Positions 17,239 to 18,831 of a stretch of 64,000 bases of DNA are shown piece by piece. Within the stretch, counting starts at the first letter, position 1. Each line of letters opens with the position of its first letter. This DNA comes from Candidatus Levyibacteriota bacterium (GTDB lineage Bacteria > Patescibacteriota > Microgenomatia > Levybacterales > UBA12049): positions 269,992-333,991 of the forward strand of contig JBDRBE010000004.1 in the NCBI GenBank assembly GCA_043823085.1, read 5' to 3'. The notes beneath the pieces were generated by a model. The model saw nothing but the letters and a program-made list of their open reading frames with translations. It was not told the DNA's origin and searched no databases. Made by a program: the position numbers and the translations under genes.

Positions 17239-18831
17239 ATGGCAGGAAAAACTGATAAATACGCGATCATTAGTGTTTTTGATAAAGAGGGGATTGTTGA
17301 ACTTGCAAAGACTCTAGATGAACTTGGCTACAAAATAATTTCTACCGGCGGGACGGCAAAAATTTTAAGCGAGAATAAAATTCCAGTAATTCCGGTTTCC
17401 CAAATTACTAAAAACCCAGAAAGTTTTGACGGCAGAATGAAAACCATCAGTTTTCAAATTGAATCGGGAATTTTATTTGATAGAAATAATCCAAAACATA
17501 CTAAAGAGGCAAAAACTCTCGGAATAAAACCAATCGATATTGTAATTTGCAACCTTTATCCTTTTGAAAAAACTATTGAAAATCCAAAAGTAAAATTAAA
17601 TGATGCTATAGAAAATATTGATATTGGGGGACCGACAATGATTAGAGCCGCGGCAAAAAACTTTAAAAATGTTTTGGTTGTTGTCGACCCGAAAGATTAT
17701 GAGATGGTTACAAAGTATTATCATGCTGAGCGAAGCGAAGCATCCCGAGACTCTTCGCTTGCGGCTCAGAATGACATACGGAAGGAACTGGCTGCAAAAG
17801 CCTTTACCCACTTATCTTTTTACGATTCACAGATTGGTAAATTTTTAAACAGTGAGTTATTTCCAAACGAACTAACAATTTCGGGAAGAAAAATTTTTGA
17901 TCTTCGATATGGCGAAAATCCTCACCAAAAATCGGCATTTTATTTAAAACCAAACACTAGGTCTCCGCTTAGAAATTTACAAAAACTTTGGGGCAGAGAA
18001 CTTTCCTATATTAATTTAACTGATATTAATGCAGGTCTTGAATCAGTCAGACTCTTTAGTAGCCCTTGCGCCGTAGTCATAAAACATAATACTCCTTGCG
18101 GAATTGCATTAGGGACTACGATTGATCAAGCTCTTCAAAGAGCGATTGAGGCTGATCCCGAATCTGCTTTTGGCGGAATTATTGTTTTAAATAAACCAAT
18201 AAATTTAAAAGCCGCCAAAGAAATTGGAAAATTTAAAGATGAGAAAAAATCCAACATTGATATTTTGGCAATTCCCAAAATTGATAAAACAACGCTTGAA
18301 TATTTACAAAAAATGAGAAAAACCATGGGTATTTACAGTTTTGGACAAATTCCAAAAGAAAGCGAGGTTGTAAACCTTAAAGGAATTGACGGTGGATTTA
18401 TTCTGCAAACTGCGGATAATAATATTGATGAAAGTTTTAAAAATTGGAAAATTGTAACAAATGTAAAACCGACAAAAAAACAATTAGAGCAAATGCAAAT
18501 TGCCTGGAAATTTATTTCAAGAATAAAGTCTAATTCAATAATTGTTGTTGACAAAACTTTACCGATGACAAGGGGAATAGGATTGGGACAAACGGCAAGA
18601 ATTAGGTCTGCGAAAATCGCGCTTGAACAAGCGGGAAAATATACAAATGGAGCAATTTTGGCAAGTGATAGTTTTTTCCCATTTGATGACGCTGTGAAAC
18701 TCGCAACCAAATTTGGAATTGGCGCAATTGTTCAGCAAGGGGGATCAATTAACGACAAGCTCTCAATTGAAGCCGCAAATAAAGCTGAAATTCCGATGGT
18801 CTTAACCGGCCGCCGCGCCTTCTGGCACTAA
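17239..18831 (+). CDS. purH: bifunctional AICAR transformylase / IMP cyclohydrolase; contains an in-frame palindromic insertion (see findings)
   Basis: MGS-like N-domain (YAIISVFDKEG...ISTGGTAK) and C-terminal AICARFT domain. Start taken at the ATG after GAGGA. Confidence 0.85.
   Translation: MAGKTDKYAIISVFDKEGIVELAKTLDELGYKIISTGGTAKILSENKIPVIPVSQITKNPESFDGRMKTISFQIESGILFDRNNPKHTKEAKTLGIKPIDIVICNLYPFEKTIENPKVKLNDAIENIDIGGPTMIRAAAKNFKNVLVVVDPKDYEMVTKYYHAERSEASRDSSLAAQNDIRKELAAKAFTHLSFYDSQIGKFLNSELFPNELTISGRKIFDLRYGENPHQKSAFYLKPNTRSPLRNLQKLWGRELSYINLTDINAGLESVRLFSSPCAVVIKHNTPCGIALGTTIDQALQRAIEADPESAFGGIIVLNKPINLKAAKEIGKFKDEKKSNIDILAIPKIDKTTLEYLQKMRKTMGIYSFGQIPKESEVVNLKGIDGGFILQTADNNIDESFKNWKIVTNVKPTKKQLEQMQIAWKFISRIKSNSIIVVDKTLPMTRGIGLGQTARIRSAKIALEQAGKYTNGAILASDSFFPFDDAVKLATKFGIGAIVQQGGSINDKLSIEAANKAEIPMVLTGRRAFWH
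17721..17776 (+). repeat. RPE-like palindromic element inserted in frame inside purH
   Basis: tcatgctgagc-gaagcgaag-catcccgagact-cttcgcttgc-ggctcag-aatgaca. GC-rich hairpin encoding ...ERSEASRDSSLAAQND.... Confidence 0.6.

Follow-up and report, generated by a model that had tools for sequence, protein, structure and literature searches.

The coding sequence of a housekeeping gene has taken up a short palindromic repeat in the DNA analysed here, a stretch of 64,000 nucleotides (the window) from a Candidatus Levyibacteriota bacterium (GenBank assembly GCA_043823085.1, contig JBDRBE010000004.1, positions 269,992 to 333,991). The gene is purH (17221-18831, plus strand), which Pfam, PDB and protein matches identify as encoding the bifunctional AICAR transformylase / IMP cyclohydrolase, and its segment at 17719-17776 is a foreign, partly decayed copy of a dispersed palindromic repeat that has no open reading frame (ORF) of its own. 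We consider it quite probable that this ORF-less copy forms an in-frame loop of PurH and that the family to which it belongs is mobile with the help of a GIY-YIG nuclease.

The element, TATCATGCTGAGCGAAGCGAAGCATCCCGAGACTCTTCGCTTGCGGCTCAGAATGACA, is a 58-nucleotide (nt) imperfect palindrome with termini of the TG..CA type, here TATCAT...ATGACA (no strand is assigned to the whole element, to its loop or to the longer copies elsewhere in the window), and its first 57 nt, 17719-17775, make up 19 in-frame codons. As delimited by family alignment and frame analysis, the left arm (17719-17744, plus strand) has the canonical length and a degenerate head, TATCATGCTGAGC instead of TGTCATTCTGAGC, and encodes YHAERSEAS. 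An apical loop CCGA (17745-17748), present in the RNA and DNA folds, separates it from the right arm (17749-17776, minus strand), which has the canonical head TGTCATTCTGAGC on the minus strand, encodes (R)DSSLAAQND and contains 2 surplus nt that are seen in the fold as a GCGG bulge at 17761-17763. The original prediction, made from the DNA letters, described a GC-rich hairpin within AT-rich purH and proposed folding as a check. Both as RNA (-26.3 kcal/mol, z -3.2) and as DNA (-17.3 kcal/mol, z -3.9) the element folds into a single long hairpin, with none of 200 shuffles as good in either case, and a 70-nt scan of the whole window gave a background of -9.1 kcal/mol on average (standard deviation 4.3). 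Its GC content of 0.554 compares with 0.368 ± 0.078 for all 56-nt windows of the stretch (top 1.3%) and with 0.35 for the rest of purH, of which it is the most GC-rich part. The hairpin was thus correctly recognized, and from the proposed coordinates, 17721-17776, the right end holds while the left end was off by 1-2 nt, the true start being 17719. An intrinsic terminator is ruled out, the GC-rich stem having no T-run 3' of it (the downstream sequence is ATACGGAAGG); a terminator scan makes no call at this place.

That the segment belongs to a repeat family was established with a covariance model (R2) built from eleven copies from other genomes only, with no window sequence included, and run on the window without filters. 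The purH copy reaches 49.3 bits with this model (E 9e-14; the E-values are rough, yet there is a wide gap to the background) and 58 bits with model R1. A sister copy lies in frame in carB (55595-55668, R2 E 6e-15), where its product, VILRSKATKDLTDVRDSSTSPQND, lies in a surface loop within the first ATP-grasp domain, and a composite copy occupies the intergenic carA-carB spacer (54633-54718, R2 E 9e-9), with outer arms GTCATGCCGAA...TTCGGCATGAC and a hairpin unit GTCGTCCTGAATTTATTTCAGGAC inside. Besides these three, R2 gave no match below E 0.05 in the 64 kb. The claim that the purH and carB inserts belong together is thus supported, as members of one family, by a model trained without them, and the resemblance of their ends was also seen correctly: the carB segment terminates in CCTCAGAATGAC, with peptide ...VRDSSTSPQND, and both the terminal GCTCAGAATGAC and the proposed RDSS-x3-QND peptide are common to the two copies. 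In an alignment of eight copies (three from the window, five from PurH genes elsewhere) the consensus is TGTCATCCTGA..GAAGGATCTC..GAGATnCTTCGCTAAnGCTCAGAATGACA, with 20 conserved base pairs, 6 of which have compensatory changes on both sides. The intergenic sequence TGTCATTCTGAACTTGTTTCAGAATCTCA (37438-37466, plus strand) is a putative single arm, or half element, that folds on its own as a hairpin (-5.3 kcal/mol, z -2.9) and has non-significant model scores (E 0.48, and 0.07 with R2). A pattern search for single-arm hairpins yielded 6 matches where 7.2 are expected. Rfam returned tRNAs and a sub-threshold microRNA hairpin match only, with no match to the element, and BLAST of the consensus element against plasmids and phages gave no match. 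Literature searches with literal element sequences returned primers only, and those on the themes of the candidate phyla radiation (CPR) and miniature transposable elements with inverted repeats (MITEs) gave nothing relevant.

The host ORF comprises 536 amino acids; the NCBI call is 530 amino acids from the ATG at 17239, which is likely the true start, and protein P0001 is 100% identical to the window PurH across these 530 residues. Pfam places the MGS domain at residues 24-139 and AICARFT_IMPCHas at residues 144-470, and the closest solved relative is PDB 4ehi (E 2e-101). As originally proposed, the element is read in frame, its product being residues 167-185, YHAERSEASRDSSLAAQND. An AlphaFold2 model of the protein has a mean predicted local distance difference test score (pLDDT) of 77, with residues 172-183 below 50 between helices 157-170 and 186-209, and the insert is best read as an exposed, disordered loop in this model. 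The three frames of a perfect 56-nt element give CHSERSEESRDSSLRSE followed by a stop, VILSEAKNLEILRFAQND without a stop, and SF followed by a stop, so that one in three is open. The purH copy enters in the first frame (YHAERSEASRDSSL) and leaves in the second (AAQND) by means of the 2-nt surplus in the right arm; a canonical right arm in the purH frame would give DSSLRSE, then a stop (TGA) and a frameshift. Since the surplus avoids this TGA, the segment is taken to be translated and selected for an open frame. A similar frame switch in the carB copy (RDSS...QND) explains why the two proteins have the RDSS/QND motif in common.

Ribosomes are known to bypass parts of messages, as in T4 gene 60 and at the GC-rich 'byp' elements of yeast mitochondria, and a GC-rich hairpin in AT-rich coding sequence is the very setting where this occurs. 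Nevertheless, it is extremely improbable that the 57 nt are bypassed instead of translated. The segment is free of stops and divisible by three in length, the 2-nt surplus specifically removes the TGA of the canonical arm, and the codons that would serve for take-off and landing do not match (TAT before, ATA after). Furthermore, all insert-bearing orthologs are in frame, in a set that is biased since only full-length proteins were retrieved.

The position at which the element resides is normally occupied by a short linker. An alignment of PurH orthologs had been proposed originally, with conservation of the segment in distant lineages as the outcome that would count against the proposal; no such conservation was found. 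A short linker is found in 99 of 120 close orthologs (64-71% identity), 88 of 121 aligned sequences are precisely of modal length, and the window protein has 29 linker residues where the mode is 19. Alignment with 4ehi, 3zzm and 9ou7, all solved structures, leaves a gap of 9-10 residues at the element position, and in the complete Levyibacteriota genome CP066685.1, which shares the gene order PBP1-TyrRS-PurH-RecG, the site is empty (...DYEKVANELKKPTPELRKKLAAKAF). Judged from these comparisons, the segment is not native to PurH. No other part of PurH is as variable as the linker; this would fit a lineage-specific expansion of native sequence that is GC-rich and self-complementary by chance, but a model derived from other genomes matches the segment with an E-value of 9e-14, and its termini are common to the carB copy. 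An assembly artefact is contradicted by the identical sequence in a second assembly, 4.8 kb being recovered without differences in the Logan assembly of run SRR27458547. Native expansion and artefact together retain hardly any probability and can be considered effectively refuted by the R2 match and the second assembly.

Extra residues at the same site were found in 21 of the 120 orthologs (about 18%), with at least three types of insert peptide: CH(S/P)E...AQ(N/D)D, RHPELVSGS...VQHD and RHSGERSDSR...GQARMT. In six orthologs (L082, L084, L107, L109, L086 and L096) family palindromes were identified in the DNA at this position; in L108 the right arm alone remains, and in P0099 a remnant has been trimmed to native length. 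Internal insertions of at least 6 amino acids in these PurH proteins are almost confined to this site; a minor second one, where family elements occur in L096 and L105, is near residue 380. As a separate observation, the genes of L105 (purH 527-2404) and L096 (purH 982-2790) contain up to three repeat-derived insertions each, some of them nested: L105 has a CCTGCCTGCCGGCAGGCAGG palindrome within a VIASETKQS-type element and, near residue 380, one element within another. CarB orthologs also lack the insert, and P0136 has a family element in the same loop. This CarB loop holds a different, AT-rich repeat-derived peptide, ..NPKQ.QNSN..NSKRFEHL.FENS.LF..W.LEIGN, in P0125, P0137, P0182 and P0213, all from Patescibacteria.

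The insert-bearing PurH sequences are scattered across a neighbour-joining tree, with some clustering: for 9 of the 21 insert bearers the nearest neighbour is an insert bearer too, where 3.5 would be expected (P = 0.015). Residues that flank the insert are associated with it as well. I164 is found in 10 of 21 insert-bearing and 6 of 99 insert-free proteins; position 166 is Y or F in 15 of the 21, against mostly A, K, S, L or T in insert-free sequences; and I186 occurs in 13 of the 21, where insert-free proteins mostly have L, F or K. These residues are common to insert bearers whatever the element subtype, and clustering by the upstream flank alone (12.2 of 21) exceeds that by the rest of the protein (8.5 of 21). 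Hitch-hiking, compensation or target preference may underlie the association. A more direct view is given by the purH genes of L107 (site filled) and L114 (site empty), which have 93-100% nucleotide identity outside divergent tracts. A sharp tract of about 190 nt, from about nt 480 to 690, spans the element with an identity of 26-68% and then returns abruptly to 98%, and the two genes diverge again near nt 990-1110. Immediately 3' of the purH stop codon L107 has another element, which L114 is without. The sharp tract around the element suggests spread by recombination, and the sequences favour the notion that element-bearing gene segments are exchanged by homologous recombination, in addition to any transposition; compensatory change may be an alternative cause of the flank divergence between L107 and L114.

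The recurrence at one site also invites a functional explanation, in which the hairpin is kept for purH expression, either by causing ribosome pausing at the boundary of the two enzymatic parts or as an mRNA processing site for RNase III or another enzyme. The hairpin is indeed near the junction of two Pfam regions, it is found at the same place in about 18% of the orthologs, its arms co-vary between copies, and the flanking residues I164, Y/F166 and I186 are common to the genes that bear it. It is, however, missing from 82% of orthologs and from a complete sister genome. Orthologous copies decay (the lone right arm of L108, the trimmed remnant in P0099 and the mismatches in the window copy), the same family is present in a strand-connecting loop of carB and in intergenic DNA, and the absence of a T-run after the hairpin excludes a terminator function. 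We regard a role in expression as quite unlikely.

The distribution outside the window was studied with a scan of a genome collection that returned 80 loci with distant PurH (38-45% identity), which were reused as negative controls. The 80 genomes belong to other phyla, and in the 563 kb covered the family was detected in two of them. A Chloroflexota metagenome-assembled genome (MAG; L057) has a single copy with perfect 27-nt arms, and a stretch of 1.5 kb upstream of purH in a Nitrospirae MAG (L033) holds five. Two of the latter, compared directly, are about 98% identical, and such near-identical copies imply recent activity; the family thus appears to be mobile over evolutionary time scales.

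Between the copies in L033 lies an ORF for a 97-amino-acid GIY-YIG protein (1912-2205, Pfam 58 bits). When compared with 1.35 Mb of collected sequence, this protein had homologs in L163, L103/L104 and L105 only. In L163 (ORF in 10847-11218, minus strand) one arm precedes the ORF by about 60 nt and a full element lies 6 nt downstream of it; in L103 (ORF in 2701-3042 of L103/L104) the ATG directly adjoins a left arm, with right arms 3' of the stop; and the ORF of L105 (318-596) is flanked by degenerate arms. A further locus, L174, was retrieved from viral contigs by GIY-YIG protein similarity alone, in a search that gave two loci; here an arm cluster (R2 E 2e-11) is found about 20 nt past the stop codon of the ORF (about 1496-1788). 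The arms around the GIY-YIG ORFs are of the purH-element type in L033 and L163 and of sister types in L103/L104 and L174. The products of the linked genes are candidate relatives of the SsnA nuclease discussed below. It was also observed that small GIY-YIG genes and purH are direct neighbours in L103/L104, L105 and L033, which are unrelated genomes; the GIY-YIG gene is downstream of purH in one of the three and upstream in the other two.

This physical linkage is of importance for judging whether the element could be a classical MITE, i.e. a deletion derivative of an insertion sequence with a DDE transposase, the GIY-YIG association being incidental. The TG...CA termini, terminal inverted repeats of 26-28 nt, small size, lack of an ORF, and occurrence in several copies per genome, near-identical in L033, are all as in MITEs. 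Target-site duplications, on the other hand, were not seen at any of more than 12 copies, a DDE transposase is absent from the window, and GIY-YIG genes are the only genes found between or beside arms, at five loci from at least four unrelated sources. We consider such an origin unlikely.

A different enzyme is encoded in the window itself, 23 kb from the element, by a RAYT-like gene for a Y1 (IS200-like) transposase (40566-41240), and the element could be imagined to be a REPIN-type doublet mobilised by it. The gene has a Pfam Y1_Tnp match (37 bits, above the cut-off) and an NCBIfam REP_Tyr_transpos score of 46 bits, which does not reach the cut-off of 80; Y1 enzymes act on single-stranded hairpins; and the element is an inverted doublet like REPINs. 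But the hairpin repeat that brackets the gene is a different one; its core, CCACCTCTAAGGTGG, is also found at homologs in L111-L113, and 57.6 kb of these Y1 loci contain no TGTCAT-family element. Moreover, the element lacks a GTAG head, and of the window's three full copies, two reside within genes. Mobilisation of the purH element by the RAYT-like enzyme was thus found to be unsupported and appears very unlikely, the Y1 gene having a 58-nt repeat of its own. This gene, with HUH motif HFHLL and the sequence RYIHLNP, is bracketed by 100% identical 58-nt direct repeats (40488-40545 and 41247-41304), both of which fold as hairpins with core AATCCACCTCTAAGGTGGATT. Homologs in three other Microgenomates genomes have the same core at their flanks, and one of these genomes holds three such genes in 20 kb.

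Returning to the reading that we prefer, in which a mobile repeat became a tolerated protein loop, the course of events may be envisaged as follows. The element is made up of two inverted arms, each built as (T/C)GTCAT - short stem region - (G)ATC, and it resides in purH where the IMP cyclohydrolase (MGS-like) and AICAR transformylase parts of the enzyme are joined. In place of about nine native linker residues there are 19 element-encoded ones, a net gain of 10, which would be translated as a hydrophilic and probably disordered loop between two helices. PurH would tolerate this loop, with selection keeping the reading frame open. Most probably, movement or rearrangement would be promoted in trans by a GIY-YIG nuclease acting on single-stranded DNA, and element-bearing gene segments would spread laterally via homologous recombination.

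Several observations weigh against this scheme or limit its reach. The window copies are about 65% identical to one another, which means that none of them is recent, and there is no GIY-YIG gene in the 64-kb window, so activity in the Levyibacteriota source genome is at most putative. The linked GIY-YIG proteins have the UPF0213 proteins 1zg2 and 1ywl as their nearest solved structures. The event in purH was also not a simple insertion: a nearly constant right junction (...ATGAC|AT., peptide D|IR.E) is combined with a variable left one, and 5-9 native residues are absent. The neighbour-joining tree and the nearest-neighbour tests do not distinguish several independent gains from a single gain with numerous later losses, and it is from the open frame that translation of the purH element is inferred. 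Finally, there is a discrepancy with the published repeats that are associated with single-domain GIY-YIG nucleases, the NTS and SRM ('Ssn-related motif') repeats (Chenal et al., Nat Commun 2025; PMC11893778). Neither the purH arms nor any of the carB arms match the published degenerate SRM pattern, HGTCWYN(0-2)YYVSBRHN(0-5)WNVSBRGN(0-2)RNCYNB, and the purH arms alone fold no better than shuffles (left -3.3, right -1.0 kcal/mol).

A more specific version of the scheme can be proposed tentatively, although we consider it doubtful: inverted doublets of Ssn-type repeats could be homing-like cassettes. In a first step, a small GIY-YIG nuclease would cut single-stranded DNA just outside each arm, after which recombination, taking place during natural transformation, would copy the cassette with part of its flanking gene sequence into the same site of related genes. 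If true, this would account for the repeated hits on one PurH linker and one CarB loop in CPR bacteria, for the constant right junction and for flanking residues that travel with the insert, and it would connect the coding palindromes of Rickettsia, for which an explanation has long been lacking, with this nuclease system.

The window contains various other repeats. FolD (50275-51336, 353 amino acids) is enlarged by roughly 70-100 residues in the region that separates its two Pfam domains (residues 124-229), and this extra stretch includes a GC-rich hairpin (50821-50890) encoding SSLESPKVTVSRDEPLDGESEGRL, which may be another inserted element. GC-rich hairpins at the ends of coding sequences (8941-9010, 59176-59245, 29186-29255, 24251-24290 and 9250-9289) look like other small repeat families; they concern the C-terminal tails of IF3 and RarA/MgsA and the N-termini of ORF 28403-29251 and of RNase III (LLPQSGILPSETK), the last one being 80% complementary to sequence of the infC-rplT spacer. 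The 5' end of maf is duplicated as a 56-nt direct repeat with 96% identity (4867-4922 and 5878-5933), and a 53-nt segment at 4624-4676 shares 85% identity with a portion of tRNA-Val (4692-4766, minus strand) without being called as a tRNA itself. An AT-rich repeat, ATTCATAATTCTTAATTCCTGATTCCTGATTCA, recurs twice in inverted orientation elsewhere in the window, with 82-91% complementarity (924-956, 10880-10912 and 32248-32280).

For those who annotate genomes, the practical consequence is that odd GC-rich peptides in CPR enzymes, such as ..SERSE.. and ..RDSS..QND, are repeat-derived and not functional motifs. In a wider context, coding palindromic selfish DNA, so far treated as a peculiarity of Rickettsia, is now found in an ultra-small CPR bacterium, and the repeat family, present in several phyla, is linked to GIY-YIG genes of a kind that was recently shown to cut single-stranded DNA at repeats. 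This offers a candidate enzyme for coding palindromes whose mobility was never explained. It also shows that a small number of loops in proteins serve time and again as places of landing or retention.

Among known systems, those closest to the purH element include the NTS/dRS3 and SRM repeats and their nuclease. SsnA binds its repeat on single-stranded DNA, cuts upstream of it and modulates natural transformation; 71% of ssnA homologs have NTS/SRM repeats nearby, only 2% of NTS in N. meningitidis are inside genes, Rickettsia is listed among the genomes with more than 300 SRMs, and local mosaicism of genes neighbouring dRS3 is discussed (PMC11893778). The family described here has the same (C/T)GTCAT 5' head, short self-complementary region and ATC tail, the repeat-nuclease-repeat arrangement around GIY-YIG genes of about 90-100 amino acids in L033, L163, L103 and L174, a distribution over several phyla, and local mosaicism as seen in L107/L114. 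Compared by eye, TGTCATTCTGAGCGAAGCGAAGAATCTC, an arm from L033, can be aligned with CGTCATTCCCGCGMAVGCGGGAATCYRG, the consensus of NTS, and L096:1039-1065 equals the Neisseria NTS consensus of PMC11893778 over all 27 positions tested. The SRM pattern is matched in L096 (both arms of 1038-1102) and L103 (1658-1685). Its sole match in the window, where shuffles give 0.05 matches, is TGTCTTTCTGGCACTAATTATGCCGGAAGCTTC at 1093-1125, within an ORF without Pfam family (1058-1618). In contrast to NTS/SRM units (the NTS consensus alone folds at -9.0 kcal/mol, z -5.5), only the arm-to-arm hairpin is stable in the purH element, and unlike most NTS the purH copy is an inverted doublet that is in frame in a gene, in a window without ssn-like gene. 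By its sequence it is probably a relative or dialect of the SRM/NTS class rather than a proven member.

Three other kinds of short palindromes or small mobile elements share some of these features. Yeast mitochondrial GC clusters merge, shuffle and cross species by flank recombination (Wu and Hao 2015, PMC4478555), and together with organelle hairpin elements (PMC2800124) they resemble the present family as short GC-rich palindromes in an AT-rich genome. Nested or composite units occur here too (54633-54718; L105), and an occasional copy within a protein gene is known (var1, as cited in PMC4478555). They differ in being organellar and unrelated in sequence, in having an AG target duplication and in lacking an associated nuclease gene. 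The repetitive extragenic palindromic (REP) and REPIN-RAYT systems also consist of short palindromes and inverted doublets, with a gene for a hairpin-recognising enzyme that acts on single-stranded DNA bracketed by its own repeats, but REPs are extragenic and have a GTAG head, and the RAYT-like gene in the window has another cognate hairpin. MITEs share the terminal inverted repeats, small size, lack of an ORF and multiple copies found here, whereas neither duplicated target sites nor a parental insertion sequence with matching ends were found in the material studied.

The closest precedent in behaviour is provided by the Rickettsia palindromic elements (RPEs; Ogata et al. 2000, 2002), which, as summarised in PMC10969869, reside in frame in housekeeping genes at tolerated positions. 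A palindromic family in frame in unrelated housekeeping genes at fold-permissive sites, with old divergent copies and no encoded enzyme, is what we observe as well, as far as that summary allows comparison. The likeness is one of behaviour, whereas size and host differ: according to the same summary RPEs are about 100-150 bp long and known from Rickettsia, whereas the purH copy comprises 58 nt, resides in Levyibacteriota (CPR) and belongs to a family that spans phyla. RPEs and the SRM/Ssn repeats may be connected. Thus, the purH element is coding palindromic selfish DNA of a known kind, probably of the Ssn-repeat class; what is new with respect to the earlier systems is the recurrent use of protein loops in CPR bacteria, the recombination tract around an orthologous copy and the physical link to GIY-YIG genes.

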